Assembly (NCBI GenBank): GCA_035293405.1
Contig: DATDOE010000090.1
Span: 138,282 to 202,281, forward strand
Reading direction: 5' to 3'
From: Vicinamibacterales bacterium
GTDB lineage: Bacteria; Acidobacteriota; Vicinamibacteria; Vicinamibacterales; UBA2999
Length of the DNA: 64,000 nt
Positions 37,826 through 55,126 of the stretch are shown here, in pieces. The first letter of the stretch is position 1; every line of letters starts with the position of its first letter. The notes beneath the pieces are model-generated. The model did no database searches. It had not been told where the DNA came from and was given only the letters and a program-made list of their open reading frames with translations. Both the position numbers and the translations under genes were made by a program.

Positions 37826-38587
37826 GTGACGGAAGATCCTCCTTCACCCCTGACGCGATCCGCGTTGCAAGGAGGGTTGGTGCTTTCGTTTCACAGTCGT
37901 GTCGTCGGAGATATCGCCGTCCTGGAGTGCCGCGGCCAAATCGTCGAAGGCCGCCAATCAGCCTCGCTCCTCCAGCACGTCGATGATCTGCTGGCGATGC
38001 ATCCGCACGTCCTTCTCCACCTCGGCGCAATCGACTTCATCGACAGCAGCGGCGTGGGTCTGCTGGTGCGCGTCCTCACCCGAACACATCTCGCCTACGG
38101 CAAGCTGGCGCTGTGCGCGGTCTCCACGAAGATCCGCGAGGTCCTGACGGTCACCAGGCTGTATTCGATCTTTGACGCCTACGACGCCGAAGCCGAGGCC
38201 ATCGCCGCCTTCTACCGGCGTCCCACAGGCGACGACAGTGCGTTCCGGCAACCGAGCATCTTGTGTGTGGACAAGTCCCCCGATGTGCTCGCGTACGTCC
38301 GAGCCCTGTTGCGGCAGGCGGGCCATGCGGTCGTCACGACCGGCAACCTGCCAGATGCGTTGATACTGCTCACGGCCACCCGGCCGAAGCTGGTGGTGAT
38401 CGGGGCGGATCTGCGGGCGATGCGAGAGACTCAGGCCGCGGGGACGTTCAACCGGTTGGCCGATGCGCTGTCAGTCATTGAGCTACCAGGACACTTCTCC
38501 ACCGATGACGCCGGCGAGGCAGGACCTCAGCTCCTCGCTCAGGTAGGTGCCATCATCGCGATGCCGGATGGACAAGCCGCGATGTGA
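37826..38587 (+). CDS. STAS (anti-sigma-factor antagonist) domain fused to a receiver-like domain
   Basis: STAS region: IAVLECRGQIV...IDFIDSSGVGLLV...REVLTVTRL. It is followed by a CheY-like ILCVDKSPDVLAYVRALLRQAGHAVV...KLVVIGADL region. Confidence 0.6.
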   Translation: MTEDPPSPLTRSALQGGLVLSFHSRVVGDIAVLECRGQIVEGRQSASLLQHVDDLLAMHPHVLLHLGAIDFIDSSGVGLLVRVLTRTHLAYGKLALCAVSTKIREVLTVTRLYSIFDAYDAEAEAIAAFYRRPTGDDSAFRQPSILCVDKSPDVLAYVRALLRQAGHAVVTTGNLPDALILLTATRPKLVVIGADLRAMRETQAAGTFNRLADALSVIELPGHFSTDDAGEAGPQLLAQVGAIIAMPDGQAAM

Positions 38588-38684
38588 ACGCTGACAGCGT
38601 TCCGTCCAGCCTGGCAGCCCGAACATGCTGCACCTCCAGCACTGAGCAGGAGCAACATTCGTGCCCCGACCCTGAAAGCGAAAC

Positions 38685-41546
38685 TCACGAGGAGGTGGTC
38701 GTCGCTCGGCTGCCGGGCTGCTGGTCCTTGGCCGGGCCGAAGGCCTCGAGTGCCGCTTCGTGTCCCAGGCGCCGGTAGCTCTCGAACTGATCCTCGGTGT
38801 AGAACTGGTCGCCGGTGCTCTGGTGCGGGAAGGTCTTGTGGCTCGCTTTGTACTGCAGCACCGACGTGTCCTCATTGCCTGTCATCGATGCCTTGATGTA
38901 GATCAGCTTCCCGTCCGGGGAGCCGTCGTGGTACTCGATGCGGCCCACAGCCGATCGCCTCTTGCTCCAGTGTGATGTGGCATCGGCGCGAATCGGCTCG
39001 ACGTCGATGGTGATCGTCACGCCGAAGTCCACCTCGCACATTCGAATGAGCGTGCCGAGCCCCTCGAATGTCAGCAACGGATCGCATTCGCCGTCGCTGA
39101 TGATGATCGTGCGACACCGGCGCCTGACCAGCTCGTAGGCGGCCAGGTTCTCGAAGTGGCCGCCGTCGGAAATCATCAGGAACTTCGACGTGTCGGTCGC
39201 ACCGCCAAACAGCTCGGCGAGCAGATAGCTGAGATTGAAGTGGGGCGAAGGAAAACCGGTGGCCTGCCTGGCCGGGTTCGGGAACCACCACCCGAGGCGC
39301 ACGTTGAACACGGTCAACAGGAACGCGACGACCGGTGACGTGTGGTAGCCCATATTGGGGCTGGCCGCGGCACCCGAGACGGAGATGGCCTGACCGAGCG
39401 TCGGCGCGCCGAGACGGCCTCCGTACTCGCGCGTCGCGATGTAGCCAACCTCCTCCTTCTTGCCCTCCTGAGTCCGCGAGAAATACCCGCTGCCGCAGGT
39501 CACCGGAGTGAGCGTGAACGCGGCGCTGTGCCGCGTGTGCAGCGCGAGATCACTCGACCCGCCCAGGTTCAGCGCGCAGTTGACGATGTGCAGCGGCCCC
39601 GGCGCGCCCGTGTGTCCGACGAGATCGGCGAGCGCGATGTCGTCCTTGTCGTCGAACCCGGTGAAGTTCTGCGGGTGGCGCTCACCCGGCTCGTAGCGCG
39701 TGGCCCCGAGGTAGCAGCGGACGAGGCGATGCCGGTAGAAGGCGTTCAGGCTGAACTCGTTGATGTCCACGCGCGTGGCCATGATCACCAGCAGCACGAT
39801 GCAGCCGCCCCACACCGCCATCGACACGCCGAGGAGCGACGGATATCCCTCGCGCAGCTGGCCACTGGCGACGCTGAGCCAGTCCTGGCCGGCGTTGATC
39901 AGGATGATCTGATCCAGGACGTAGGCCACGCCAATCAGCAGCCCGCCGATGAACAGGAACGGCGCCACGCGGGCGACCAGTTCCTTGACCGTCGTGGCCG
40001 TGCTCCTCTTCGTGCCTTCACCAGACGTTGATTCGGAGTTGCCCGCGAAGAGGCCGGCGACGATCGTGCCGATCCAGCTGCCGCCAGCGGTCAGCGCGGT
40101 GATTGGGTGGCTCATCAGCGCCATCCCAATCCAGCCTGGACCGTACACCGCAGCGACGGCGATCACCATCCAGGCAACCGCGTAAATGGCCAGCCACGCT
40201 CCGAGCCGGCTCCACCACTCGCGCACACCATCGGTGGACTGCCGGCCCATCATGCCGATCATCACGACGATGGTGAAGACGAATGCGCCGGTCACGAGCG
40301 GCGGCCCCCATACGAACGCCTTCCGTACGAGCGCGGCACCGTGCTCGGGCTTCGCCCATCCATGGAACAGCAGCATGACCGCACACAGCAGTGCGTGGAG
40401 CACCACGACGCCGACAACCGGTGCCCCGATCGCGGCGAATGCGCTCTTCCAGTCGCGCCAGCTGACGGAGCACACCGACAGCAGCCACAAGGACGCGAAC
40501 ACCACTGAGAGCGGGAACGGCCAATACTGCCCCGCCTGCATGAAGAATGCGCCGTAACTCGTCAGCGTGCTCAACACGACGCGGTCCGCCGCCGGCGCCT
40601 CGCCCAGGGTCACGCCAGTGCTCTCGGCCCAGAGAATGGCGGTGACCAGGAACGCGGCGACCATCATTGGCGTCACCACCGCGTACTGCACCCACGCCTG
40701 CGTGTAGTTGATCCGATCCGGCGGATCCACGCCCGACAACCTGTACACGACGGCGGCGATGCGCACGGCGACGGGCTGAAGCACGAAGCCGGTGGCGACC
40801 AGCAGCAGCGCGATGGGCGCCGCGGCCCAGTAGCTGATCAGGCCGCCATGGAAGGGATCGAAATCGACACTCCGTCCGTAGAGCCATGCCACGCCGACGC
40901 AGATCGCTCCGAGAATCAGGCCGAGCAACCAGCTCCTGGCCTGAAGCAGCGGCATCTTGTCGTGGCCGGTCACGGAGATCTGGTTGCCGGCGATGCCGAC
41001 CACGCCGGCCACGAACAGGATGATGGTGACCCAACGCCAATTACCGACGCCCGGCCACTGCTGGAACAGCTCGAACAACGGCCGTGGCAGCATGAGCACA
41101 CAGGCGATCGCGAGGATCACCGTGATCTGCACGAGCAGCGCATTGCGCAGCCAGATGGTCAGCATCGACCAGGTATCGGCACTGAAGAAGCCGACCCTCG
41201 GCGACAGGTAATTCGAGTACCGGCGCAGGTGACCGATCGATTCTTTCCAATCCGCGTCCGGCTCGAGCCAGCCTCTGTGCCGCTTGCAGCTGGCGCTCAA
41301 CCACCCGCCAATGTAGCCGCCGCCAGACACGGTGGACAGGTAGTCCACGGTCTTCAACGTCCCGAGGCGCCTGAGGGCCTCGAGCACACCCAGGCCGAAG
41401 GTCGCGCTGCGGATGCCACCGCCCGAGAAGGCGAGACCGACGAGGTCCTGCCCAGGCGCTCGCTCGTCGCGGCGCCGCTTCTTCACTTCGGCGAGCTCGC
41501 CCTCGAACGCCTGTTCCCAGTCGCAGCAATCGTCACTCTTCGTCAT
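38685..41546 (-). CDS. Patatin-like phospholipase with a large multi-TM insertion between the Ser and Asp catalytic motifs
   Basis: Motifs are GLAFSGGGIRS (oxyanion hole), STVSGGG (nucleophile) and, after about 600 aa with 10 or more hydrophobic helices, ISDGGHFENL (DGG Asp motif). The start MTKSDD follows a CAGGAGC RBS. Confidence 0.8.
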   Translation of the reverse strand: MTKSDDCCDWEQAFEGELAEVKKRRRDERAPGQDLVGLAFSGGGIRSATFGLGVLEALRRLGTLKTVDYLSTVSGGGYIGGWLSASCKRHRGWLEPDADWKESIGHLRRYSNYLSPRVGFFSADTWSMLTIWLRNALLVQITVILAIACVLMLPRPLFELFQQWPGVGNWRWVTIILFVAGVVGIAGNQISVTGHDKMPLLQARSWLLGLILGAICVGVAWLYGRSVDFDPFHGGLISYWAAAPIALLLVATGFVLQPVAVRIAAVVYRLSGVDPPDRINYTQAWVQYAVVTPMMVAAFLVTAILWAESTGVTLGEAPAADRVVLSTLTSYGAFFMQAGQYWPFPLSVVFASLWLLSVCSVSWRDWKSAFAAIGAPVVGVVVLHALLCAVMLLFHGWAKPEHGAALVRKAFVWGPPLVTGAFVFTIVVMIGMMGRQSTDGVREWWSRLGAWLAIYAVAWMVIAVAAVYGPGWIGMALMSHPITALTAGGSWIGTIVAGLFAGNSESTSGEGTKRSTATTVKELVARVAPFLFIGGLLIGVAYVLDQIILINAGQDWLSVASGQLREGYPSLLGVSMAVWGGCIVLLVIMATRVDINEFSLNAFYRHRLVRCYLGATRYEPGERHPQNFTGFDDKDDIALADLVGHTGAPGPLHIVNCALNLGGSSDLALHTRHSAAFTLTPVTCGSGYFSRTQEGKKEEVGYIATREYGGRLGAPTLGQAISVSGAAASPNMGYHTSPVVAFLLTVFNVRLGWWFPNPARQATGFPSPHFNLSYLLAELFGGATDTSKFLMISDGGHFENLAAYELVRRRCRTIIISDGECDPLLTFEGLGTLIRMCEVDFGVTITIDVEPIRADATSHWSKRRSAVGRIEYHDGSPDGKLIYIKASMTGNEDTSVLQYKASHKTFPHQSTGDQFYTEDQFESYRRLGHEAALEAFGPAKDQQPGSRATTTSS

Positions 41547-41574
41547 GTCCGCTCCTGCGTCAGTTCTACAGGCG

Positions 41575-43068
41575 CTATCCTCGCGCTCCCGCGAAGTAGC
41601 GCAGGGCGCGCACGCCCGGAAGAAAGAAGTAGGCGCCGCCTCGCACGGCGACAAAGGACGGCAGCTCCGAGATGCGGCGTCGAAGTCCGCGCGCCGGCAT
41701 CGTAAATCCGTTCGTCACCCGACCGTCGGCAGTGTGAAGGCGATTGCCGAGCAGTGGATCGCTCTCGCCCGTCAATGCCGAGAACTTCGTGCTCGACATC
41801 CAGGCGTTCTGGATGAACTCGAACTGACGCGAGATGTTCGCGTTCAGACAGATGAAGTAGAGCCCTCGCTCGGGATCGTCGGGCGGCGCCGGGCGGAGTG
41901 CATCGTCGACGGACAAGGACGGACCGAACTCGCGGCCGCGACGAAGAATGCGATGGAAACGGACGGACGAGACCACGTCATCCTGAAACGCACTCGGCGG
42001 CAGCCCCAAATCGGCGAGGCGCCGCTTCAGCCCGGTCTCGTGATGCGCGTAGTCGCCGTTCCTGGGGTTCGCCCGGCGGATGTGCGCGCCGAATGGGCAG
42101 CGGACACCGGCCGGGTCGTCATCAAACGTGAACTGATTCAGCCGCCGTTCTTGCGCCGTGCCGGCTACACCGGGACTCCCGTCCGCCTCGATCTGCGCGA
42201 GCGGCTCCCCCGTTCGCGTCCGGCCAACAAGCTGCGACGCCAGCGCGTCGGCAGCCTGACGATCCCCACCGGCGCGGCTCGTGACGTACTGCCAGAAGTC
42301 GTGCACGTTCTGCTTCAACTGACGCATGACCAGGTAGGTGCCGTTCCTGCCGACGTCCCACTTGCCCGGCGCCTCCTCAGCGGGGGGCAGCCCGGGGCTC
42401 GAGAGGTCCACATCGATCAATGGCCGATCTGTGTACTCACCGTACTCGTTGCGATATCCGAGGAGGAGCTCGCCAAGCGCAACCTCGTTGCCATAGCCGT
42501 CTCCGCCGTCTGACGGATCGCGTCGCTGCTCCCAATCCACCGCGGGCTGGCTGATCCCGTCCATGAACCCGAACGGCTCGACTCCATCCAGCTGACTCGT
42601 GGTCAGCCGCCGCGTCTCTTCGAACCCCTCGTGCCATGCGTCCCCGAGCGTGCGGCCGACCCACTCATCGAGCTGTCCGGGCTTCGCGAACAACATCACG
42701 AGCACATGGGGCACGACGGGCGCGTAGCCCCAGTCCCATCGCTCGGGTGCATTCGACTCGACGTCCCCCAGGCGTCGCGCGCGACGAGGGTCGTCCATGC
42801 CGTCCAGGAACTCCGACGAGAAGCCGGCCCGCACGGCGGCGGATACGTCAAGCGCCTCCATGCCCTGTGCCGTGAACGCAATCTGCAGGGCCGTGACCGG
42901 CGGCGGCGAGAGCGTCGCTGCGGTTGTGACCGGCGCCGACCGCAGCCACGCTCGCGCGGCATCGACATTCCGCACACGAGCCAGCACGTACACTGCATCG
43001 GTCATTGACCCGTAGCCGAAACGGACAAGGCCCTGTACGTCGTCGAGCTCAACGCCGCCGAGGATCAC
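41575..43068 (-). CDS. DyP-type haem peroxidase (long, approximately 497 aa form)
   Basis: GxxDG motif FGFMDGISQP and proximal-His motif CPFGAHIRRANPR. GTG start at 43066-43068 overlaps the upstream stop (GTGA). In frame with ORF 41575..43788. Confidence 0.8.
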   Translation of the reverse strand: MILGGVELDDVQGLVRFGYGSMTDAVYVLARVRNVDAARAWLRSAPVTTAATLSPPPVTALQIAFTAQGMEALDVSAAVRAGFSSEFLDGMDDPRRARRLGDVESNAPERWDWGYAPVVPHVLVMLFAKPGQLDEWVGRTLGDAWHEGFEETRRLTTSQLDGVEPFGFMDGISQPAVDWEQRRDPSDGGDGYGNEVALGELLLGYRNEYGEYTDRPLIDVDLSSPGLPPAEEAPGKWDVGRNGTYLVMRQLKQNVHDFWQYVTSRAGGDRQAADALASQLVGRTRTGEPLAQIEADGSPGVAGTAQERRLNQFTFDDDPAGVRCPFGAHIRRANPRNGDYAHHETGLKRRLADLGLPPSAFQDDVVSSVRFHRILRRGREFGPSLSVDDALRPAPPDDPERGLYFICLNANISRQFEFIQNAWMSSTKFSALTGESDPLLGNRLHTADGRVTNGFTMPARGLRRRISELPSFVAVRGGAYFFLPGVRALRYFAGARG

Positions 43069-44396
43069 AGCAGCGCCACCCAATCTTTGGCGGCGCGCTC
43101 GCTCAACGACGAGGCGTCGAGTCCCTGCCGTAGTCTCGCGTTCCGCTCCAGATCGACAGCCGTCAGGCCAGGGTACGCCTTGTACCAGACCTGAGTCGGC
43201 ATCTGGTGACGGCGCAGGTAATCTTTGAACCTGCGCTCGTCGTGGCACCCATCCAGAAGCAGCCATCGGACCCTCGGGTAGCCGATGCCGTTGCCGAACA
43301 CGACGTTGAGCCCGAAGCCGACCTTGTTGATGAAGTCGTCCATATAGCTCTCGACGCTCCCGTCGTAGTTGCTCAGAAAGATCACACGCCGGCGCCCGTC
43401 GAGGAACACCCAGCGCGCGAAATGAATGCTGCGTACGCGCGCGAGGCGTCCCCGTTTGTAGATGTGCCTCGCGGCCCAGTCGATCACCCACAGCACCAGG
43501 ATCGTCGTCCACCGGCGCAGCGGCCCCGGCTTCAGAGTGCCCATCGCGCTGAACTGGTTGGTCACGTCGTGATCCTCGAGTAACGCCAGGGCCGCCACGT
43601 CCTCGCCTGGCGGGCGCGGGCACAACTCCGGATCCGTCTGCTCCAGCACTCGAAGGCGCACGACCGCCAGCACGGCCCCGGCGATGACAACGAGCAGCGC
43701 GATGCGCGGCACGAGCAGCAGCGCCAGGAGCAGGATGAGGATGACGGCCGGCAGACTGGCGAGGTGCAGCAGGTTCGCGATCCGCCATCCCATCGGCGTC
43801 GGTGCGTCCGTGGACAGCGTCAGGCGCCCGGCTCTGACGTCAACCATCACGAGGTCGCGCAGGCGTTCGTGGACTTGTCGAGGCGTGAGGCGCTCGATTT
43901 CAGGCGATCGATTCACATGCCGCTCCAACGCGTCGCGGAGCGCGGCGTCCTCACGAACCTGGCGCGCCGTTCGTCCTCGCCAGTTGACATACACCGCCGC
44001 CGCCGGCGCCTGGTGCGCGCGCATCCACTGGAGCAGGTCCGTCTCGGCGGTGAAGCCCTCACAACACGAGAAGATCGCGCGCAGCCCGGGGCCGGCGCGG
44101 GCGCTCACGTCGACAAGAAAGTCGTCGGCATCACCGTCCACGTCACCAAGAAAGCTGAGGCCTCGCGGATAGACCGGCGCTTGGATTCCGTAGACGCGGT
44201 TGTCGGCCAGCGTCCGATCGTCCACGATGAGAAACCGGGCGACGTGCACCTGCTCGAACTGCCCGAACGGGACGAGCGCGTTGTCGGGCCTGGCGTGTCC
44301 AGGCGCACCGTTCATCGACGCCAGGAGCCGGCCCAACTCCGCCTCGCGCCGGGGGTCGATCGGCGCCAGGACCATGAATGTCGACTGTGGCGTCAT
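43065..44396 (-). CDS. Membrane protein of unknown function with duplicated H[VF]AR[FW] motif halves
   Basis: The N-terminal half has QVHVARFLIVDD. A central hydrophobic stretch (LASLPAVILILLLALLLVPRIALLVVIAGAVLAV) follows. The C-terminal half has SIHFARWVFLDG...FLSNYDGS. Confidence 0.65.
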   Translation of the reverse strand: MTPQSTFMVLAPIDPRREAELGRLLASMNGAPGHARPDNALVPFGQFEQVHVARFLIVDDRTLADNRVYGIQAPVYPRGLSFLGDVDGDADDFLVDVSARAGPGLRAIFSCCEGFTAETDLLQWMRAHQAPAAAVYVNWRGRTARQVREDAALRDALERHVNRSPEIERLTPRQVHERLRDLVMVDVRAGRLTLSTDAPTPMGWRIANLLHLASLPAVILILLLALLLVPRIALLVVIAGAVLAVVRLRVLEQTDPELCPRPPGEDVAALALLEDHDVTNQFSAMGTLKPGPLRRWTTILVLWVIDWAARHIYKRGRLARVRSIHFARWVFLDGRRRVIFLSNYDGSVESYMDDFINKVGFGLNVVFGNGIGYPRVRWLLLDGCHDERRFKDYLRRHQMPTQVWYKAYPGLTAVDLERNARLRQGLDASSLSERAAKDWVALL

Positions 44397-44401
44397 CGGT
44401 G

Positions 44402-45658
44402 CTACTCGAACACCTCATCCCCTGTCGGCTCGTAGTGCGGCACCGCGTTCTTGGTGTGCCGCAGCTGTGACAGCTCCGCGTATATCCGGCGGCGCGCCCG
44501 GCTCAGGTGGCCGAGCGGACGATGCTCGGGAATGGCATGCCAGGGGTTGTACGAGAGCCGCTTGGCGAACTCCATCTGCGACGGTGAATTGAACCGCTGT
44601 CGCGGGATTCGGAGCGTCGCCACCGACACCCGTGGCGACAGCCGCTCAGGCCACAACACCGTGCTCTGCTCGATCGGCATGAGATGCGAATCGGTCTGGC
44701 GCTGGAGACGGATGTCGAACTCGACGTCCTCCCGTTCCAATGTCTTCACCATCGCGTCGCGCAGGTAATCGTCCGGCGGACGAAACGGCAGCCGCGGTAT
44801 CGGCGTGCGCCGTTTCGATGTGGGCCAGAACGAGTACTGCATCGCCTGGCCGTCCCCCAGCAGATACGGGACCTGACTGAAATACTCCACCTCGAACGGA
44901 CTGCTCTGCGTCTTCAGCCGCAGTGACTGCATGATGAAATCGAGGAGGTGCGGCTGGCGAAGGTTCAAGAAATAGTAGATCTGCGCGTTCGTCAGGCTCT
45001 CGCGCTGGAGCTGCGCGTTCGCCCTGACGTCGGGACTGACGAACGTTGGCGTCGATACGGTCAGCAGGTCCTGTGTGAACCGCTCCTCGTCCATCAGCTT
45101 TGGTCCCGGCACGCCCATCAACTTGATGCTCATGCTCAGGAAGCCCACATCGTCGATGTCGGGCGTCACGTACGGACCCGGACCGGCATATCGCACCCAG
45201 GCGCGATACGTGTGCGGACGTGCGTAGATCCCGTGGCGCAACTCCGGCGGAAGGTTGTCGTGCACCGTGAACTCGCCGCGAACGATGCCGTGTGTCTTGG
45301 TGTTGCCGCCGCGCTCGAATCCCCCAGGTTTCCAGAGCAAGCGCATCTGCTCATGGAAACTGGCAATGATCGAATCGACCCAGGCGTCTGCGTCCTGTGG
45401 CGGGCGCTCCTCCGCGAGCGCCAGGTGCTCGTTCCGCCGGCCCATGTTGATCAGGCCGGTGACCACACGCTCGCCCAGGTCGCGAAACAGCACGTCGAAC
45501 AGCGGCCGAAAGAACGGATCGAAACGACGCTCCAGTTGCAAGAGCGCGATGGAGGTATCTGAGATCCAGTCCAGCAGCGCCGAACCGGTGTTCGCACGTG
45601 GCAGCGGACGACTGACGTTCGAGTTGCTGCCGGGGCTCGGTCCAAGCTGTGTGGCCAT
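44402..45658 (-). CDS. Catalase-related haem protein (allene-oxide-synthase/mini-catalase-like family)
   Basis: Distal-His-like context GGNTKTHGIVRGEFTV. C-terminal NPWHAIPEHRPLGHLSRARRRIYAEL (Arg/Tyr proximal-ligand context). It is a paralogue of 55364..56335. Confidence 0.7.
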   Translation of the reverse strand: MATQLGPSPGSNSNVSRPLPRANTGSALLDWISDTSIALLQLERRFDPFFRPLFDVLFRDLGERVVTGLINMGRRNEHLALAEERPPQDADAWVDSIIASFHEQMRLLWKPGGFERGGNTKTHGIVRGEFTVHDNLPPELRHGIYARPHTYRAWVRYAGPGPYVTPDIDDVGFLSMSIKLMGVPGPKLMDEERFTQDLLTVSTPTFVSPDVRANAQLQRESLTNAQIYYFLNLRQPHLLDFIMQSLRLKTQSSPFEVEYFSQVPYLLGDGQAMQYSFWPTSKRRTPIPRLPFRPPDDYLRDAMVKTLEREDVEFDIRLQRQTDSHLMPIEQSTVLWPERLSPRVSVATLRIPRQRFNSPSQMEFAKRLSYNPWHAIPEHRPLGHLSRARRRIYAELSQLRHTKNAVPHYEPTGDEVFE

Positions 45659-45680
45659 CGCGAAATCCCCAGCAGCAGCG

Positions 45681-48167
45681 TCAGAAGGTCTTCAGGAATT
45701 CAATCAGGGCGCGTTTCTCCGGGTCCGCCAGCTCGGTGCCGAACAAGTGCCCGCGGTTCACGATGAAGTCCGGACACTTGCTCATTTCGAGCAGCGGGTC
45801 TACGAGATCCCGGAATGCGGCCGTGGCATCGGCGTCGGTGGCGTTCGCTCCGAGCTTGTGCAGCCGCGCAAGAATCCTGACCATGAGGGCCGCGACCCTC
45901 GCATCGTGCTCGACCTGCCGGGACGGATCGTCGGCGATCAACCGCAGGTTGGAGAGCAGTCCGATCGGCGTCCCTCTCGGAATCGGCCCGATCCGCAAAC
46001 CGTCCTCTGAGAAGAGCGACGGGAACAGCGCCTGCTGCGTCCTGAGCGTCCGCTTGAGGGCCTCAGGGAGATACCCTGCGCTGAACTTCAGGTACACCGG
46101 CTGCGTGCCATGCCCTTCCGGCGCGCGGTCGCCCACGCGATCGATGAGGCCGGGAATCTTGTCGCCGAGCAACGAGTCCTTCTCGCGATCCTGCGGCCAG
46201 AGCAGCTTGTGGATCGAGTCGTCGAACGATCGCATGCGCCCCTCGACCGACGGGCTCATCTCGAGCCGGCCCACCGTGTTGTTCAGGAGGAACGGCGCCG
46301 TGGACCAGAGGCTGACGAGCGACGGCGGCCGCGTGTAGCCACGTCCTCCGGCCGGCATCTCGAAGGAGCGCGCTTCGCCAGTGTATGGGTGATACCAGAG
46401 CATCTTGCCGACCGACGGCAGCTCCTTGTACGACTGCGACGAGAAGTTGTCCCAGATATTGCCGCTCATGGCGTTGGTGGCGAGCGGACTGCAGGCATTG
46501 GTCTGCAGCAGCGTCACTGGTACGCGGACCTCGGCAGAGAGGTAGTTGTCGTTGAGGAAGTCCGGTGCGGTCACGATGTCGCGCATCTGCTTCTTGAACT
46601 CCGGTGTCTGCGTCGCAGCCCAGTACCGGTTCCAGCAATCGAGATATCCCTTGCCGTTGCAGCCCTCCGGGTCGAGGCCAGCCGCCATCTCCGGCAGCTT
46701 GGTCGAATGGCATCGCGCGCAGGTGTCGGCAAACACCTCTTTGCCGCGCGTCAGCACGGTCGCGTCCTTAGTCAGATACGCGGCGCCGCCAGGGGCATCC
46801 GCGAGATGGTGAGCGTCTGTCGTCTTGAGGAAGAACTTCGCCGTGTCGAGGGTCTGCGCCTCGGTCGCCTTGAAGTACGCGGAGTTGCGCCGCGCCGCTT
46901 CGATCCTGAGTGGCGTCTGCGGCCTGGCTCCGATGAGCGGCAGGAAGTGCTGCGTCCACTCCTCGCTGAAGGTCCCGATGTTGAGATACACGCGGTTGAG
47001 CGCACCGAGCGCACCCACCGAGTCGGCGCCGTCCTTGAGCACGCGCGGGGCCCAAACCGCCGGTGACGCGAAGAGCGTGGCGAGCGGGCCGTCCTTGATG
47101 AAGTCGCTGAACTGACGATTGTCGAGCCCACCGCCAGCGAGTGTCTCCTTGCCCCAGCGCTTGGCGTGCAGCAGGCGCGGCCCGATCAAATACAACGCGT
47201 TCATCGTCCGCGGGTTGTTGATGTTGTCGCTCGCAACGAATGAGGTGTCGAGCGAGCCCGGCCGCGACGAATGAAAAATCTGGAACGCAAAGTCCTCGAA
47301 GTCGGCAGCCTGATAGAAGATGCGATCGATCGTGAAGTACTGGGCGCCGACGTTGGAGCTCAGGTTGGCCCACGCCGGGTTATTGGGATCGGCGGGTGGC
47401 TTGATCGGATTGGGACCGACATGGCAGAACCCGCACGACATACCCACGCGGTAGGGTCGGACGAGCGCCTTGTCCTCGTAGTACGTCCGGTCGGTGTAAT
47501 AGCGTTCCGCGTCCCAGCGTTTGGCCGCCTGTTCGTCGAAGTTCGGGTTCGGAAAGAGGCGCAGGCCAACGATGCCCGTGGCATAGCCGTAGAACGATCC
47601 GGTCTCGAAGGGGTTGCCGTTCAGCGTCTGGCCCCGCGCGCCTGTCTGAACGCCGGGGTACTTCGTCGCGTTCTCGAATGGATCCGGTGGACAGTCCGCC
47701 TGGCGCTGATCGACCCACAGACCCCTACGCGCCGGATTGGCTCCCGTCGGCTTGGTGAAGCACGGCTCGTTGACGAGGCCGAAGTAGTCCCACCGGTTGG
47801 CCCGGCTGTAGCTCTGGGACGGGTGGGACGAGACGACTTTGAGAAAGTCGAGCGCCCCGCCACTGGTCTCGCTCAGCGTATCCCACAGCCGATCGTTCCC
47901 GGCGCTCCACACCAGCCACGTATTGCGGCCGCGAATCTCGTCGAGCGAGAGCGTAACGGGACCGCCGCGGTCCTGATCCATGTCGCGGAAGTAATCCTCA
48001 TCGGCCGCAGGGAACGACGCGGCTTCGCGCGCGGGCGACGCGACGAGCGCTTCGTCTTGCTGCTCGGGAGGCGTCGGCGGGTGGGTCCGGAACCAGGCGA
48101 ACACGAGGCCGGCAGTGACGACGACGACGGCCACGCCGGCCAGCAGGCCGGTGCGAGTAGATTGCAT
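45681..48167 (-). CDS. Large exported di-haem c-type cytochrome (peroxidase/oxygenase-like), unknown function
   Basis: Signal anchor MQSTRTGLLAGVAVVVVTAGLVFAWF. It has two CxxCH motifs (MSCGFCHVGPNP and DTCARCHSTK) about 230 aa apart. Confidence 0.7.
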   Translation of the reverse strand: MQSTRTGLLAGVAVVVVTAGLVFAWFRTHPPTPPEQQDEALVASPAREAASFPAADEDYFRDMDQDRGGPVTLSLDEIRGRNTWLVWSAGNDRLWDTLSETSGGALDFLKVVSSHPSQSYSRANRWDYFGLVNEPCFTKPTGANPARRGLWVDQRQADCPPDPFENATKYPGVQTGARGQTLNGNPFETGSFYGYATGIVGLRLFPNPNFDEQAAKRWDAERYYTDRTYYEDKALVRPYRVGMSCGFCHVGPNPIKPPADPNNPAWANLSSNVGAQYFTIDRIFYQAADFEDFAFQIFHSSRPGSLDTSFVASDNINNPRTMNALYLIGPRLLHAKRWGKETLAGGGLDNRQFSDFIKDGPLATLFASPAVWAPRVLKDGADSVGALGALNRVYLNIGTFSEEWTQHFLPLIGARPQTPLRIEAARRNSAYFKATEAQTLDTAKFFLKTTDAHHLADAPGGAAYLTKDATVLTRGKEVFADTCARCHSTKLPEMAAGLDPEGCNGKGYLDCWNRYWAATQTPEFKKQMRDIVTAPDFLNDNYLSAEVRVPVTLLQTNACSPLATNAMSGNIWDNFSSQSYKELPSVGKMLWYHPYTGEARSFEMPAGGRGYTRPPSLVSLWSTAPFLLNNTVGRLEMSPSVEGRMRSFDDSIHKLLWPQDREKDSLLGDKIPGLIDRVGDRAPEGHGTQPVYLKFSAGYLPEALKRTLRTQQALFPSLFSEDGLRIGPIPRGTPIGLLSNLRLIADDPSRQVEHDARVAALMVRILARLHKLGANATDADATAAFRDLVDPLLEMSKCPDFIVNRGHLFGTELADPEKRALIEFLKTF

Positions 48168-48181
48168 CACGACGCGTCGCC

Positions 48182-48616
48182 TCACTCGAATTCGAGGGTG
48201 AAGTGCAGACTCGGCTTGTTGTGGGCGTACACCAGGCCGAGATACAGCTTGGGAGCGATGAGCCGGATCTCGTCGCGAATCCAACTCGCCACGAGGGACG
48301 TCTTCGAGTAGTCGAGGACGATGCACTCGTTGCCATCAAACTGACTGGGGCCCTTGTAGACCTCCGCCACGATGGCGTTCAGGCCAAAGGCGGTAATGCG
48401 GTTGCGCAGGACGCCGTGCGCACCGTCAAACGTTTTGCCCTGCCAGACAAACCGGCTGACGGCTTCAGCGATCGCCGGTGAAAACCTGGTGCCGGCGGCA
48501 ACAATAGCCGTCCCCTTCGCCGCGCCGTCGGGAAGAGGTCCGGCGACCGCGGACCGAAACATGTCATTGAGCTGCGTGTCGTCGAGTGTGAGCAATGTCG
48601 GGACGTCGATCACCAT
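48182..48616 (-). CDS. Small conserved protein (144 aa), unknown function; first gene of the operon
   Basis: Start MVIDVPTLL with a GAGG RBS. The motif FDGNECIVLDYSKTSLVASWIRDEIRLIAPKLYLGLVY is one I recall from a conserved hypothetical family. Confidence 0.6.
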   Translation of the reverse strand: MVIDVPTLLTLDDTQLNDMFRSAVAGPLPDGAAKGTAIVAAGTRFSPAIAEAVSRFVWQGKTFDGAHGVLRNRITAFGLNAIVAEVYKGPSQFDGNECIVLDYSKTSLVASWIRDEIRLIAPKLYLGLVYAHNKPSLHFTLEFE

Positions 48617-48814
48617 ACATGTGCCTCGCGAAAGACTTGCCTGGACCACTCAGTTGAGGTTCGCGTGGGGAGCTCGCGCGCTCGCCCGCTTCGTAGTGGC
48701 GGCGCGGAAGGAATCGTTACACATGAAGAACGACAATGGACGAGAAACCGAACGTCGATGGTGAATCGTGGGCAAGCGCCCGTGGCGCGCCAACGGCCGA
48801 GCTTCAGGGAACCG

Positions 48815-49270
48815 TCAGATCCCGGTGATCTGGACGTTGGCCCCGTCGGGATCCTTCACGTGGAACCCGAACTCCAGGTTCTCGCGTGGAGTGAGGCCCA
48901 TCCCCAGCAGCTCCTTCGTCACCGCGTCCTTGTTGAAGTTCTCCACGCCAATCGCGAAGTGATCCACGAGGCCGGGAGGCGGCTCGACCCGAAGGGACAC
49001 GAGCACCTTGCCGCCGATGCCAAGCCGCGAAATCCTGTTGGGCTTGTCCTCGTTCACGACCGACAGTCCGAACACACGGTTGTAGAAATCAATCGAGCGT
49101 GGCATGTCCGTCACGAGCACCGAGACGTGGTTGATGCTGCCCGATTTCAGCGAGGCCGCCGAAGCGGTCGCGCCCGCGGCGGCGACCATCGCCAGCGCCT
49201 GGATCAACTCGCGGCGCGAGAGCCGCCCGCGCTCGAAGCGCGTCACGAGGTCGGAAATCATGTGTTCCAT
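48815..49270 (-). CDS. VOC (glyoxalase/bleomycin-resistance/dioxygenase) family protein with Tat-like signal
   Basis: SRRELIQALAMVAAAGATASA twin-Arg-like signal. INHVSVLVTD...FY..VFG VOC pattern. Confidence 0.8.
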   Translation of the reverse strand: MEHMISDLVTRFERGRLSRRELIQALAMVAAAGATASAASLKSGSINHVSVLVTDMPRSIDFYNRVFGLSVVNEDKPNRISRLGIGGKVLVSLRVEPPPGLVDHFAIGVENFNKDAVTKELLGMGLTPRENLEFGFHVKDPDGANVQITGI

Positions 49271-49384
49271 GGCGCGCAGTGTACGCCGTTTCGTGTTCGG
49301 TTCGCCCTCCGGGCTCGTTCATCGAGCACTACGACGTGATTCCGGCTTGACTCTCCCCCAACGTCAGACTGCAAGCTATGCACG

Positions 49385-50446
49385 GTGACGATCGACGCGA
49401 GCCCATCGTACCGGGTCCATGAGTTCGCCGAGCTGGCCGGCGTCACGGTCAAGACGCTGCATCACTACGATCGGCTGGGTCTGCTCAAGCCGGGGCGCAC
49501 CGCCGCCGGCTATCGGGTGTACACACCCGCGGACCTGCCACGTCTCGAGCAGATCGTCGCGCTCAAGGCGCTCGGGCTCTCGCTGAAGGACATCCGCGCC
49601 CTTCTCGACCGCGACGCGCTCCCCCTGCAGTCGACGTTCCGCCAGCAGCGTGAAGTCCTCGAAGAGAAGCGGCGGCTGCTCGACCGCGCCATCCAGACAC
49701 TGACCGAGGCGGAACAGGCGATCGCGTCGAGCCCGGCGTCGGCGACGCCGATCCTTCAGAAGGTAATCAGGGCCATGACCATGCAGGACATCGACGTCAT
49801 GCGGAAGTACTACAGTGACGAGGCGTGGATCCAGTGGAGGCGCTACTACGAAGAGTGGCCGTCGCCCGAGTGGCAGGCGCTGTATCGTGACCTCAACGCG
49901 GCGCTCGATCTCGACCCCGCGAGCGACGCCGCACAGCAACTCGCCGATCGATGGATGGCCCTCTTCAAACGCGACAGCCAGATGCCGGCCATCCGTACCG
50001 GTCTGATGAAGGCATGGGCCGATCGCGAGCATTGGCCACCCGCCCTGAGGCGCCGCATGGCCGAGTTCAACATCGAGCGCGCCACGGAGTTCGTCAACGA
50101 GACGTTGTGGGTCAGGTGGGACCGAGAGCGTGAGGCCCGTGCACACGCCGGCGCGCAGGGCATGCCCAGCGTCACTGAGTCGCGACGTGCCTTGTTCCGT
50201 GAGTGGGCGGCGGCCCTCGACGTCGATCCCGGCAGCCCGCAGGCGCAGACCCTCGCCGCTCGATGGCGTGCGCTCCTCGATGCCGAGACCCATGGTGACG
50301 AAGAGATCAAAGCCGAGGTCCTCGGCTTCTTCCGCCGGCGTCGTCAGTGGCCGGCAGGGATGAAGCGCTACGTCGCCTCGCTGTATGGGATGGACGCCCA
50401 GACATGGGAGCGCGTCACGGACCTCATCGAAAGAGCGGCATTGTGA
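49385..50446 (+). CDS. MerR family regulator with TipAS-like C-terminal repeats
   Basis: YRVHEFAELAGVTVKTLHHYDRLGLLKPGRTAAGYRVY HTH, followed by two similar Trp-rich segments. Confidence 0.85.
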   Translation: MTIDASPSYRVHEFAELAGVTVKTLHHYDRLGLLKPGRTAAGYRVYTPADLPRLEQIVALKALGLSLKDIRALLDRDALPLQSTFRQQREVLEEKRRLLDRAIQTLTEAEQAIASSPASATPILQKVIRAMTMQDIDVMRKYYSDEAWIQWRRYYEEWPSPEWQALYRDLNAALDLDPASDAAQQLADRWMALFKRDSQMPAIRTGLMKAWADREHWPPALRRRMAEFNIERATEFVNETLWVRWDREREARAHAGAQGMPSVTESRRALFREWAAALDVDPGSPQAQTLAARWRALLDAETHGDEEIKAEVLGFFRRRRQWPAGMKRYVASLYGMDAQTWERVTDLIERAAL

Positions 50447-52520: not shown

Positions 52521-53501
52521 ATGGCTGAACACGACTCTCAGAAGCCAGACATCACTCTTTCAGCGCGCGACGTTTTCACGATCGACACGGACCTGCAAGT
52601 GCCGGCGTTCTCGGCCGCGGACGAGCACGTGCCCGCTTGTGATCCGGACTACGTGTTCGACCGCGCCACGACGCTCGCCCTGCTCGCGGGATTCGTGCAC
52701 AACCGCCGCGTGATGGTGCAGGGCCGCCATGGCACGGGCAAGTCCAGCCACGTCGAGCAGGTGGCGTCACGACTGAACTGGCCCTGCGTCCGCGTGAATC
52801 TCGACGGTCACGTCAGCCGCATGGACCTGATCGGCAAAGACGCGATCGTGATCAGGGACGGCAAGCAGGTCACGGAGTTTCAGCCCGGCATGCTCACGTG
52901 GGCGCTGCAGCGGCCGTGCGCGCTGGTCTTCGACGAGTACGACGCCGGCCGTGCCGACGTGATGTTCGTGATTCAGCGCGTGCTCGAAGTGGAAGGGCGT
53001 CTGACGCTCCTCGACCAGAGCCGCGTCATCGAGCCGCACCCGTCGTTTCGTCTGTTCGCCACCTCCAATACGGTCGGCCTTGGCGATGCGACCGGCCTCT
53101 ATCACGGGACACAGCCGCTCAATCAGGGCCAGATGGACCGCTGGAACATCGTCGTCACGCTGAACTACCTGGCGCACGATCGTGAAGTCGAGGTCGTGCT
53201 GGCGCGATGCCCGGAATATCGGAATGCCGAGGGACGGGCCAAGGCCAGCGCCATGATCGCGCTGGCGAACCTGACACGCCGCGGGTTCGCCGACGGAGAC
53301 CTGTCGACGGTCATGTCCCCTCGAACCGTGGTGACGTGGGCACAGAACACGACGCTCTTCCACGATCCCGGGCTGGCATTCAAGCTGACATTCCTCAACC
53401 GGTGCGACGAAGACGAACGCGCCCTCGTCGCCGAGTACTACCAGCGCTGTATGGGCGGCGATCTCGCGGACGAAGATCGGCCTGCGCCGGGAAAGCGGTG
53501 A
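52521..53501 (+). CDS. cobS: CobS-like AAA+ (MoxR-class) ATPase
   Basis: GRHGTGKSSHVEQVASRLNWPCVRVNLDGHVSRMDLIGKDAIV...VFDEYDAGRADVMFVIQRVLE...FRLFATSNTVGLGD closely follows the CobS pattern. Confidence 0.85.
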   Translation: MAEHDSQKPDITLSARDVFTIDTDLQVPAFSAADEHVPACDPDYVFDRATTLALLAGFVHNRRVMVQGRHGTGKSSHVEQVASRLNWPCVRVNLDGHVSRMDLIGKDAIVIRDGKQVTEFQPGMLTWALQRPCALVFDEYDAGRADVMFVIQRVLEVEGRLTLLDQSRVIEPHPSFRLFATSNTVGLGDATGLYHGTQPLNQGQMDRWNIVVTLNYLAHDREVEVVLARCPEYRNAEGRAKASAMIALANLTRRGFADGDLSTVMSPRTVVTWAQNTTLFHDPGLAFKLTFLNRCDEDERALVAEYYQRCMGGDLADEDRPAPGKR

Positions 53502-55126
53502 TCGACGAACGTGGAACCGGGCCCGTCCGCGCCATCGGGGCCTGCACTCGCGCGCTCGCGGGATCGAGCGGCGTGGACGCCGCGATGGCCGGAGCGAATG
53601 CTCCAACACTGAGCGGGCTGCGGGCGATCGGGGATCGGCTCGCGGTGCGCACGCGCTTCCATGACGCGACGGCGTACCGCGATCACCTTCCGCCCGAGAT
53701 GCCCGCGTCGGGTCTCTTCAGCGCGCTTGAACTCGCCCGTCTCGACGTGCTCGGCGTGGGCTGGCTGCCCGGCATCGCCCGCAATCTGATGGCGCATCCG
53801 GGCGCCGAGAACGATGGCGTCCGCTGGCTCGCCTTCGAGTTGATGGGCGGCCGCGCCGCGCCAGGTGAGAAGGCCGTCATGGCCGGCGCGGTGAAGAGCG
53901 CGCTGCCCTCGCATCTAGTAGACGGTCTTACTGGGCTCGCCACACACCTGAACGATCCCGCGACGTTTGCGGCCACAGCCGCCACATGGGCGCGCGCTGC
54001 GGGCGCGCGGCTTCCGAAGGCCCTGATCGCGCCTGCCGAGGCAGGGCGCATCCCGCTGCCGGCACGCGAGGTGCGGCGTCAGCTTCCGAGGCGCGGCGAC
54101 CCGGGTGCGACGTCGGCTCCCCTGCGCGAGGACCAGCGCGCCGATCCGAGTCAGGATTCAGAGGGCACCGCAACAGGGAACACGGGAGCCTCAGGTCAAG
54201 GCCACGACGGATATCGTGTCTACACCACTGCGCACGACCGGGTCGTGAACGCCGCCGCACTCGCCAGCCGGGAGGAGCTCGCCACCCTGCGCACCCAGCT
54301 CGAGGCGGAATTCGGCTCGATCCGCTCGGTAGTGGCCCGGCTGGCCAAGCGATTGATGCGCGTACTGATGGCGCGGCAAGTACGTGAATGGCGCTTCGAT
54401 CTCGACGAGGGCGTCCTGGACGGCTCGCGTCTGGCCACGCTGGTCGCCAGCGGAGGCCGAGCCCGTCCCTTCAAACAAGAGAGCGATTCACCATTCCCGG
54501 GAACAGTGGTCACCCTGCTCATCGACCACTCAGGCTCGATGCGCGGCCGGCCGATGCTCATCGCCGCCCTCACGGTGGAGATCTTCGCCCGCGTGCTCGA
54601 GCGATGCGGCGTGCGCTGCGAGGTGCTGGGGTTCACCACGCGCGACTGGAACGGCGGCGAGCCCGCGCGCGAGTGGGCGGCGCACGGCTATCCCGAGAGC
54701 CCGGGGCGGCTCAACGCGCTCCAGCACATCATCGTCAAGAGCGCCGACGTCCCGTGGCGGCGGGCCCGGGTTGCTCTCGGCCTCTTCCTCCATGACGAGA
54801 TGCTGAAAGAGAACATCGACGGCGAAGCGCTGGCCTGGGCTCACAAGCGTCTGCTTGCGCGCAGCGAGCCCCGCCGCATTCTCGTGGTCGTCTCCGACGG
54901 CACGCCGATGGATGAAGCCACGCTGGCGGCCAACGGCCACGAATACCTGGAACGCCATCTGCAGGCCGTGGTCGAGGGCATCGAGAAGACCTCGCGCGTT
55001 CAACTCGCGGCGATCGGCATTGGCCACAACGTCTCGGCCTTCTACACCAACGCCACGACGGTCGCGAAGATCGAGCAGCTCGGCCCCGCCCTCAGCGCCA
55101 AGCTGACGGCGCTGCTCGGCTCATAA
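53498..55126 (+). CDS. cobT: CobT-like VWA-domain protein
   Basis: GTG start overlaps the cobS stop (GTGA). The C-terminal VWA has LLIDHSGSMRG (DxSxS MIDAS). In frame with ORF 53207..55126. Confidence 0.8.
   Translation: MIDERGTGPVRAIGACTRALAGSSGVDAAMAGANAPTLSGLRAIGDRLAVRTRFHDATAYRDHLPPEMPASGLFSALELARLDVLGVGWLPGIARNLMAHPGAENDGVRWLAFELMGGRAAPGEKAVMAGAVKSALPSHLVDGLTGLATHLNDPATFAATAATWARAAGARLPKALIAPAEAGRIPLPAREVRRQLPRRGDPGATSAPLREDQRADPSQDSEGTATGNTGASGQGHDGYRVYTTAHDRVVNAAALASREELATLRTQLEAEFGSIRSVVARLAKRLMRVLMARQVREWRFDLDEGVLDGSRLATLVASGGRARPFKQESDSPFPGTVVTLLIDHSGSMRGRPMLIAALTVEIFARVLERCGVRCEVLGFTTRDWNGGEPAREWAAHGYPESPGRLNALQHIIVKSADVPWRRARVALGLFLHDEMLKENIDGEALAWAHKRLLARSEPRRILVVVSDGTPMDEATLAANGHEYLERHLQAVVEGIEKTSRVQLAAIGIGHNVSAFYTNATTVAKIEQLGPALSAKLTALLGS

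Follow-up and report, generated by a model that had tools for sequence, protein, structure and literature searches.

Bacterial oxylipin biosynthesis is known from few systems, namely lipoxygenases (LOX), the oleate-diol synthase of Pseudomonas and the dioxygenase/lyase of Nostoc. In Nostoc punctiforme, a linoleate 10S-dioxygenase is partnered by a 10S-hydroperoxide lyase, a distinct protein of catalase-related type (Brash et al. 2014, as cited in PMC13049297), and corals and cyanobacteria carry fusions of allene oxide synthase (AOS) and LOX that join an oxygenase to a catalase-related hydroperoxide converter (PMC5617202). In Pseudomonas aeruginosa, the periplasmic oleate 10S-dioxygenase PA2077 and diol synthase PA2078 share a branch with RoxA (PMC4496055). 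Both the pairing of an oxygenase with a catalase-related converter and the use of di-haem proteins as fatty-acid oxygenases (PMC4496055) are thus established. Here we describe a cluster of six genes, g1-g6, found in a 64,000-nt stretch of DNA from a Vicinamibacterales bacterium (the window; residue numbers refer to the window proteins). Judged from sequence comparisons, the cluster probably encodes a membrane-associated pathway for fatty-acid oxygenation and hydroperoxide conversion of the oxylipin type. Its conserved unit is a four-gene core (g1, g3, g4 and g5) with an interchangeable oxygenase, not a six-gene operon.

The six genes are co-directional on the minus strand, both in the list of open reading frames (ORFs) and in independent gene calls on three public metagenome contigs that carry an identical locus. 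Gene boundaries agree among the calls on the three contigs, one caller placing the g4 start seven codons later. Read from g1 to g6, the spacings are 14, 22, 5, -4 (a GTGA overlap) and 28 nt. An earlier reading of the window by a model that saw only the letters and their ORFs (the sequence-only reading) had described the same layout. It also assigned all six proteins to their families correctly, and every motif it cited is present and conserved in homologues. The features of the cluster are as follows.

48617-48814, minus strand: intergenic gap of 198 nt, the only sizeable one, 5' of g1 (seen in the sequence itself)
48182-48616, minus strand: g1, 144 aa, predicted β-barrel protein (possibly of calycin/FABP-like fold) with no Pfam family; invariant core
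45681-48167, minus strand: g2, 828 aa, predicted membrane-tethered periplasmic di-haem cytochrome c of the RoxA-like/'CytoC_perox' group; candidate oxygenase
44402-45658, minus strand: g3, 418 aa, long-form catalase-related haemoprotein; candidate fatty-acid hydroperoxide-converting enzyme; core
43065-44396, minus strand: g4, 443 aa, two ferredoxin-like (ABM-type α+β barrel) halves and a transmembrane hairpin; core
41575-43068, minus strand: g5, 497 aa, DyP-type haem peroxidase nearest to the C/D-type (class V), without export signal; core
38685-41546, minus strand: g6, 953 aa, patatin-like phospholipase whose catalytic halves are split by a polytopic membrane insert; accessory

A pattern scan of one genome per GTDB species identified g3 relatives in 436 species, and the best 80 loci were analysed. 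Gene sets were determined by tblastn of the window proteins and all-against-all ORF clustering for the 52 loci in which g3 is flanked by 7 kb or more on each side, which derive from Acidobacteriota (18), Verrucomicrobiota (16), Proteobacteria (11), Cyanobacteria (6) and Gemmatimonadota (1). The genes g1, g4 and g5 accompany g3 in 47 of these 52 loci, in five phyla. Because the same set recurs in at least ten different gene orders over the five phyla, the grouping reflects more than chance; the cluster is widespread and horizontally shared between phyla. The sequence-only reading had taken the six-gene operon as the unit and staked it on synteny elsewhere. The genes are indeed syntenic in other genomes, but what travels together is the core plus an oxygenase, and the patatin gene is usually missing. 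Cultured carriers include Variovorax ureilyticus P51, Variovorax sp. J22P240, Rhodanobacter sp. Soil772, Leptolyngbya sp. JSC-1, Microseira wollei NIES-4236 and Stenomitos frigidus ULC18, and the hosts are mostly soil bacteria. One contig (L041, DATMXF010000072.1), assigned to a 'Patescibacteria group bacterium' bin, encodes g3-g4-g5 with 57-71% identity to the window proteins; it is probably mis-binned, as such genes are unexpected in Patescibacteria.

Two families of candidate oxygenase accompany the core. The di-haem protein g2 is found in 40 of the 52 well-flanked loci. A gene of the animal-haem-peroxidase (An_peroxidase) family, absent from the window set, occurs in 10 of the 52, in cyanobacteria and some others. 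The cyanobacterial An_peroxidase-family protein aligns over its full length with the rice and Arabidopsis fatty-acid α-dioxygenases (α-DOX; E 1.5e-124), and all 13 α-DOX-like copies retain EEFxSVYR[LM]H, the motif in which fatty-acid haem dioxygenases have their catalytic Tyr and proximal His. Among the 47 core loci, 35 have g2 only, 7 the α-DOX-like gene only, 3 both and 2 neither, so that a candidate oxygenase is present in 45 of 47. This largely complementary distribution is the strongest single argument that the core handles the product of a fatty-acid oxygenase, and that g2 is the oxygenase where the α-DOX-like protein is missing. The sequence-only reading had reasoned that the di-haem protein would have to be the oxygenating step; its replacement by an α-dioxygenase homologue in cyanobacterial clusters fits that idea. 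The cyanobacterial clusters alone also contain a ~311-aa protein without Pfam match, always located between the α-DOX-like gene and g1 (L014:5640-6575, plus strand; L005, L015, L018, L029 and L040).

The cluster resembles the Nostoc pair and the AOS-LOX proteins in its genetic coupling of a haem or iron dioxygenase to a small catalase-related hydroperoxide converter; some core clusters even have an α-DOX/cyclooxygenase (COX)-type dioxygenase beside g3, and fusions of An_peroxidase and catalase-related domains exist. Unlike in those two-gene systems, g3 has constant companions in g1, g4 and the DyP g5, and the oxygenase partner in the window is a di-haem cytochrome c in place of a LOX or COX type.

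The catalase-related protein g3 is the most conserved core component, with 69-77% identity across phyla, an unusually high level that points to strong constraint and horizontal exchange. In the nearest genome match, a metagenome-assembled genome of an uncultured Acidobacteriota bacterium, it is 94% identical. By sequence, g3 appears to be a divergent member of the catalase-related family, a long form whose N-terminus carries a conserved ~75-aa extension. It has no Pfam match of its own, the threshold of PF00199 (Catalase) not being reached, and its sole PDB sequence match is coral AOS (1u5u; profile E 0.09), where the Thr-His pair aligns on T66-H67, the distal residues whose roles are described in PMC5617202. 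An exhaustive profile search with g3 gave 4605 clusters, whose distant ~340-aa members pass the Pfam Catalase threshold; one of these, P0412, matches the g3 profile with E 3.6e-70 and scores 40.3 bits against the PF00199 cut-off of 25, and comparable relatives lie at E 1e-60 to 1e-70. Relatives on plasmids, 28-36% identical (tblastn E 1e-27 to 6e-49), are annotated 'catalase family protein'. Catalase homology of g3 is supported by the passing of PF00199 by these profile-search relatives, the catalase-family annotation of the plasmid relatives and the conservation of the haem residues.

Specifically, g3 exposes a distal T122-H123-G124 motif and a proximal H379-R-P-L-G...R389...Y393 motif. In 15 homologues T122 never varies and H123 is kept in 90% or more, and R389 and Y393 are invariant across the g3 family and its short-form relatives. 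The His, Arg and Tyr haem residues are thus retained, where the sequence-only reading had named a lack of haem ligands as counting against it. An Arg four residues ahead of the proximal Tyr is the catalase spacing. The Thr-His distal and Arg/Tyr proximal pairs are those of the AOS-LOX and Nostoc type, and g3 differs from that type in its long form, in falling under the Pfam Catalase threshold and in its distal-Asn position. The likeness to coral AOS drawn in the sequence-only reading does not extend to this Asn (N137 in coral AOS, N148 in catalase): the position is S202/T203 in g3 and N or H in the short forms. According to the title of a reference listed in PMC5617202, mutating the Asn alters the rate and not the essential chemistry.

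The window holds a second catalase-related gene of the short form (55364-56335, minus strand; 323 aa), separated from the cluster by ~7 kb. Both the proximal motif ...HRPLG..R.R.IY and a distal SHP segment are retained, and there is no Pfam match at E <=0.01. The gene lies between a CobS/CobT-like pair on one side and a small membrane protein on the other, without an obvious oxygenase partner.

The di-haem protein g2 carries an N-terminal hydrophobic anchor, which many homologues replace by a lipoprotein box. Its two CxxCH motifs (C245/C248/H249 and C483/C486/H487) are invariant in 21 homologues and lie 238 residues apart, close to the spacing in PA2077 (245) and PA2078 (235); that of RoxA is 199 (PMC4496055). 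Exported, with two CxxCH motifs and about twice the size of canonical cytochrome c peroxidase (CCP), g2 has the size and motif pattern given for the RoxA/FadCcp type in PMC4496055. Among 21 members of the g2 family, model NF040606 is matched by all 21 (best 7e-17), PF21419 (RoxA-like_Cyt-c) by 13 (best 4e-6), and the RoxC, RoxB and RoxA models by 13, 10 and 7, respectively, weakly and in the haem-c and C-terminal segments only. For the window protein, the NF040606 match has E 1.1e-7 and 31 bits, where the cut-off is 150, and the C-terminal tail of RoxC is matched with E 0.0018. In profile searches against the PDB, its C-terminal 25 residues match the RoxA structure 4b2n weakly (E 0.16), and beyond this tail the sequence and profile searches of the PDB returned generic cytochrome c motif matches only. 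These family models suggest that g2 belongs with RoxA-like proteins and not in canonical CCP/MauG, the grouping that the sequence-only reading had named as the one that would count against it.

In being large and exported with two CxxCH motifs, g2 is like PA2077, PA2078 and RoxA, which oxygenate hydrophobic alkenes. It differs from them in its larger size (828 aa) and remote similarity, the window protein lying under every family cut-off, and in its setting: the Pseudomonas system has two genes, is wholly periplasmic and lacks a catalase-related, DyP, ABM-like or patatin partner. Several Acidobacteriaceae and Verrucomicrobiota loci (L022:3921-8804; L044:118-5287; L010, L017, L033 and L077) hold at least two g2 paralogues, arranged in tandem or near one another, and these sets recall the dioxygenase and diol-synthase pair PA2077/PA2078 of P. 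aeruginosa.

Fusion proteins recovered from the exhaustive g3 profile search link the same enzyme classes within single chains. A DyP is fused to a long-form g3 in P0364, P0367 and P0388, and the N-terminal half of P0364 is 52% identical to g5 over the full g5 length. In P0440, P0453 and P0457 a catalase-related domain is followed by one transmembrane helix and a RoxA-like di-haem domain, an order reversed in P0495. P0433 joins an An_peroxidase domain (COX/α-DOX-type peroxidase domain) to a catalase-related domain, and P0488 a START/Polyketide_cyc2 lipid-binding domain to a catalase-related domain. The DyP fusions are made of true g5 and g3 orthologues, and the di-haem and peroxidase fusions contain short-form g3 paralogues. 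A seeming g3-g4 fusion, P0363, was left out of the count, as its C-terminus looks frameshifted. The transmembrane-linked fusions explain a puzzle of topology that the sequence-only reading did not raise, in which g2 is exported and g3 and g5 have no export signal (g5 homology begins at about residue 6): the helix leaves the catalase-related part on the cytoplasmic side and the c-type haem part in the periplasm, matching exported g2 and signal-less g3. On this evidence, g2 appears periplasmic and g3 and g5 cytoplasmic.

The combination also occurs on the symbiosis plasmid pNGR234a of the plant symbiont Sinorhizobium fredii NGR234 (L084, NC_000914.2 410107-416160; NGR_RS31595-31610), where genes for a catalase, a 232-aa hypothetical protein, a di-haem cytochrome c peroxidase and a patatin-like phospholipase are co-directional. 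As in the window, three enzyme classes are adjacent, here in an unrelated alphaproteobacterium, and the di-haem protein is again N-terminally anchored. The plasmid proteins differ from those of the window: the catalase-family protein, 36% identical to g3, is of the short form; the 596-aa di-haem protein aligns with g2 over a single domain at 24% identity; the patatin is not interrupted by a membrane insert and fails to match g6 by BLAST; and DyP, g4 and g1 are missing. Given its only remote similarity to g3, g2 and g6, the plasmid set appears to have brought the three enzyme classes together separately. The four genes adjoin IS21 elements. In Methylobacterium currus, a 'peroxidase family protein' gene lies directly upstream of a 'catalase family protein' gene, and another plasmid pairs a catalase-family gene with an α/β hydrolase. 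The idea that plasmid di-haem homologues generally lie beside catalase and patatin genes was rejected, as contexts vary and pNGR234a alone of those inspected has the full trio; the 443-aa neighbour of the di-haem gene in S. fredii NXT3 is not catalase-related. A plasmid of Bradyrhizobium barranii (L094/L095; NZ_CP088281.1 288058-294860 and 141-1304) encodes a 666-aa di-haem 'cytochrome c', 41% identical to the NGR234 protein and directly followed by a cytochrome P450, with an oleate hydratase and an SDR 3-5 kb upstream; this locus may be another fatty-acid oxygenation cluster.

The fusions bear directly on a reading in which the cluster destroys lipid peroxides arising from oxidative stress or repairs membranes. 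Here the patatin would excise the damaged chain, g3 and the DyP would destroy the hydroperoxide, g1 would act as carrier, and the di-haem protein would be a peroxidase. Both g3 and g5 belong to peroxide-consuming enzyme classes, the NCBIfam model matched by g2 carries the name 'peroxidase', and the window neighbours include a MerR/TipAS-type regulator, a VOC/glyoxalase gene and, ~3 kb past the downstream end of the cluster, an AhpC/Redoxin gene; moreover, as far as we know, signalling oxylipins would be of little obvious use to hosts without polyunsaturated lipids. Yet the An_peroxidase and RoxA-like fusions with catalase-related domains mirror the producer-converter layout of AOS-LOX proteins, and the α-dioxygenase homologue with which the core is paired in 10 of 52 loci keeps its catalytic Tyr and belongs to enzymes that make hydroperoxides. 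The stress-related neighbours are conserved in no other locus, and the lipase is a minority component. Detoxification would draw on most of the same components, but dedicated dioxygenase partners fit it poorly, and we regard it as unlikely.

Homology of g5 to solved DyPs is unambiguous despite family scores below cut-off, which identifies it by sequence as a DyP peroxidase. It matches PDB 8re3 with E 3e-40 over residues 61-493 and the fungal D-type DyPs at ~1e-26, scores 80.1 bits on TIGR01413 (1.7e-22; cut-off 100.5), and falls under the cut-offs of the Pfam models DyP_N and Dyp_perox_C. The G167-F-M-D170-G motif, proximal H329 (A-H329-IRRANPR) and R376/R377 are invariant in 16 homologues and align with 8re3, so that g5 shares its fold, GxxDG Asp, distal Arg and proximal His with class V (C/D-type) DyPs such as fungal AauDyP and DyP2. 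It differs from characterised DyPs in being strictly paired with a membrane-anchored double ABM-like protein and sometimes fused to a catalase-related protein, a partnership of which we found no description.

That partner, g4, directly precedes g5 on the same strand in all 64 of 64 loci and overlaps it by 4 nt in the window. It has no Pfam or other sequence-family match. Its AlphaFold model (pLDDT 78.6, pTM 0.81) shows two ferredoxin-like halves with long connecting helices, among them a transmembrane hairpin; each half contributes one of the motifs H51-V-A-R54 and H325-F-A-R328-W. Foldseek matched the model to the WhiE-ORFI ABM/SchA-like protein 9lmn (E 3e-4), the polyketide decarboxylase Abx(+)O (9ltx), the putative monooxygenase 3mcs and TcmI (1tuw). 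The resemblance of HVARF/HFARW to AHIRR raised the possibility that g4 is a degenerate DyP paralogue, which was rejected on a g4-g5 profile comparison (probability 0.4%).

The smallest core protein, g1, is modelled by AlphaFold as a small β-barrel (pLDDT 87.5). Its sole significant Foldseek match is 4mve (Tcur_1030, an uncharacterised structural-genomics protein; E 9e-5), with weak matches to FABP, CRABP and nitrophorin (E >=0.09, TM-scores ~0.3). Sequence and profile searches of the PDB with g1 returned zero matches, and a Pfam scan of its family members gave noise only. The family is large, with 2953 homologue clusters, and all source names among the matches listed and the members looked up are 'hypothetical protein'; wherever source annotation was readable, members of the g1, g3 and g4 families carry that label. 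Like g3 and g5, g1 and g4 have no export signal.

These folds have haem-binding relatives (DyP/EfeB, IsdG/HmoB-like ABM proteins, nitrophorin-like barrels and catalase-like proteins), which raises the question of whether the cluster handles haem through uptake, iron release or degradation. The g4 model does match the haem-degrading proteins HmoB and LmHde, the g1 model nitrophorin, and g5 the EfeB-type model TIGR01412, but all of these matches are weak (E 0.2 to 1), g5 retains the full Asp, Arg and His peroxidase set, and the neighbourhoods of related loci contain no conserved transporter or haem-uptake gene. As haem handling would also leave the α-dioxygenase, GMC and patatin partners unexplained, we consider it very unlikely.

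A GMC flavoprotein gene, not considered in the sequence-only reading, occurs in 22 of the 52 loci and is missing from the window. Among solved structures the protein is closest to choline, alcohol and aryl-alcohol oxidases and to fatty-acid photodecarboxylase, and it has no signal peptide, its FAD-binding fold starting at about residue 12 (NAD_binding_8 from residue 14). An oxidase of this kind could supply H2O2 in a system that, like fungal ligninolytic systems, combines it with a RoxA-like oxygenase and a DyP for oxidation of an extracellular or exogenous hydrophobic polymer or aromatic (polyisoprenoid, lignin-like or humic). The frequency of the GMC gene, the matches of the g2 family to the rubber oxygenase models RoxA, RoxB and RoxC, the closeness of g5 to fungal D-type DyPs and the predominance of soil hosts would all suit such a role. 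An extracellular route is nonetheless difficult to reconcile with g5, g3, g1 and the GMC protein lacking signal peptides, the rubber-oxygenase matches are weak and confined to haem-c and C-terminal segments, and the α-dioxygenase homologue, patatin lipase and START fusion are left unexplained. Polymer oxidation is accordingly an improbable function of the cluster.

The patatin-like phospholipase g6 is an accessory member of the cluster, found in 7 of the 52 loci in two positions relative to the core: downstream of g5 in the window and in L026, and upstream of g2 in Verrucomicrobiota. The Pfam Patatin match (2e-7, 31.8 bits against a cut-off of 27.7) spans residues 38-107 only, as the domain is not contiguous. 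Conservation in 10 homologues reaches 90% or more for each of the SGGGIRS (oxyanion hole), STVSGGG (nucleophile elbow) and SDGGHF (Asp) motifs, the Ser and Asp motifs lying ~720 residues apart. About ten hydrophobic segments lie within residues 128-595, forming a membrane insert of roughly 470-600 aa. In the nucleophile elbow, S-T-V-S-G-G-G, Thr replaces the first Gly of GxSxG, and the N-terminus aligns with the lipase motifs of cPLA2-delta. Patatin-like lipases are effectors in known defence systems such as CBASS CapV, and the cluster has apparently been exchanged between phyla, as might be expected of an anti-phage or conflict system in which the phospholipase destroys the membrane. However, the patatin gene is absent from 45 of the 52 loci, PADLOC models are matched by none of the six proteins, and the core is made up of redox haem enzymes and includes neither a sensor nor a nucleotide-signalling component, making a defensive role barely plausible.

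We therefore favour fatty-acid oxygenation and hydroperoxide conversion at the membrane, for which the following sequence of steps can be proposed. In this organism, g6 would release a fatty acid from membrane phospholipid. Tethered at the periplasmic membrane face, g2 would dioxygenate the unsaturated acyl chain to a hydroperoxide, like PA2077, or alternatively cleave a double bond as in RoxA. The lipid product would partition through the membrane to the cytoplasmic face, where g3 could rearrange the hydroperoxide by allene-oxide, epoxy-alcohol or lyase-type chemistry. There, g5 would work with g3, held at the membrane by g4, which may serve as anchor or as an additional catalyst, and g1 would bind or shuttle the hydrophobic substrate or product as a lipid carrier. 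By analogy with Pseudomonas (PMC4496055), the substrate may be a monoene, or it may be another lipid. Membrane association of g2, g4 and g6 is shown by the g2 anchor or lipobox, the g4 transmembrane hairpin and the polytopic g6, and lipid signatures extend to the weak FABP-like matches of g1. A more specific version, which we advance tentatively, is a trans-membrane oxylipin pathway in which periplasmic RoxA-type g2, as fatty-acid dioxygenase, takes the place of LOX/COX types, a cytoplasmic-face complex of g3, the DyP and the ABM-like protein makes a signalling or volatile lipid, and the ABM-like and β-barrel proteins fill cyclase and carrier roles as in the plant jasmonate route.

Several observations weigh against fatty-acid oxygenation. 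The window g2 lies far under the family cut-offs and does not itself match PF21419, and the di-haem parts of the fusions and of pNGR234a are ~23-24% identical to it, so that these links appear to be at superfamily level and not between orthologues. The wider di-haem family also occurs beside S8 peptidases, an α/β hydrolase with a metallophosphoesterase, and other unrelated genes. Because g2 is predicted to be periplasmic and g1, g3, g4 and g5 have no export signal, the intermediate must cross or sit in the membrane. The Ser/Thr at the distal-Asn position of g3 suggests that its chemistry may differ, and the roles proposed for g1, g4 and g5 are inferred solely from fold and gene adjacency. The scarcity of g6 implies that a lipase step is not generally needed. 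Finally, Acidobacteriota and Verrucomicrobiota are, to our knowledge, not known for polyunsaturated lipids.

What is new is the four-gene core, with its three unannotated families and obligate DyP, the split patatin, the usual pairing with a RoxA-like candidate oxygenase, and the breadth of distribution; a literature search found no description of this gene combination, although the literature covered was incomplete and absence is thus unproven. If fatty-acid oxygenation is correct, it adds a pathway to at least several hundred species of Acidobacteriota, Verrucomicrobiota, Burkholderiales, Gemmatimonadota and Cyanobacteria, phyla abundant in soil and freshwater. It would give a first functional context to three large families, two of them 'hypothetical' without a Pfam model and one a divergent catalase-related clade, suggest a physiological lipid substrate for one DyP class, and provide a second, independent case of di-haem cytochrome c proteins as fatty-acid oxygenases. 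The cultured carrier strains make the hypothesis directly testable.

The 198-nt gap before g1 is likely the promoter region of the six-gene unit. A sigma-70 consensus scan of 38300-49500 found zero promoter-like sites, which is uninformative for a genome of 65% G+C, and terminator-like sites in the same interval were no more frequent than in shuffled sequence, making that scan equally uninformative. Upstream of the gap lie the VOC/glyoxalase gene (48815-49270, minus strand) and the divergent MerR + TipAS-like regulator (49385-50446, plus strand), where the sequence-only reading had placed them; neither has a counterpart in any of the 80 related loci, and regulation of the cluster by these neighbours, if real, is specific to this lineage. 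Downstream, a convergent STAS-domain gene lies 97 nt beyond the end of the unit.

Between the cluster region and the short-form g3 paralogue, a CobS-like AAA+ ATPase and a CobT-like (vWA) protein are encoded as a pair (52521-55126, plus strand), with Pfam matches CobS_N/AAA_5 and CobT/CobT_C on the identical public contig and no other cobalamin genes in view. A 927-aa protein (57665-60448, minus strand) combines an N-terminal Trypsin_2 domain (8e-15) with a C-terminal PLDc_2 domain (6e-22), an unusual protease-phospholipase D/nuclease architecture.

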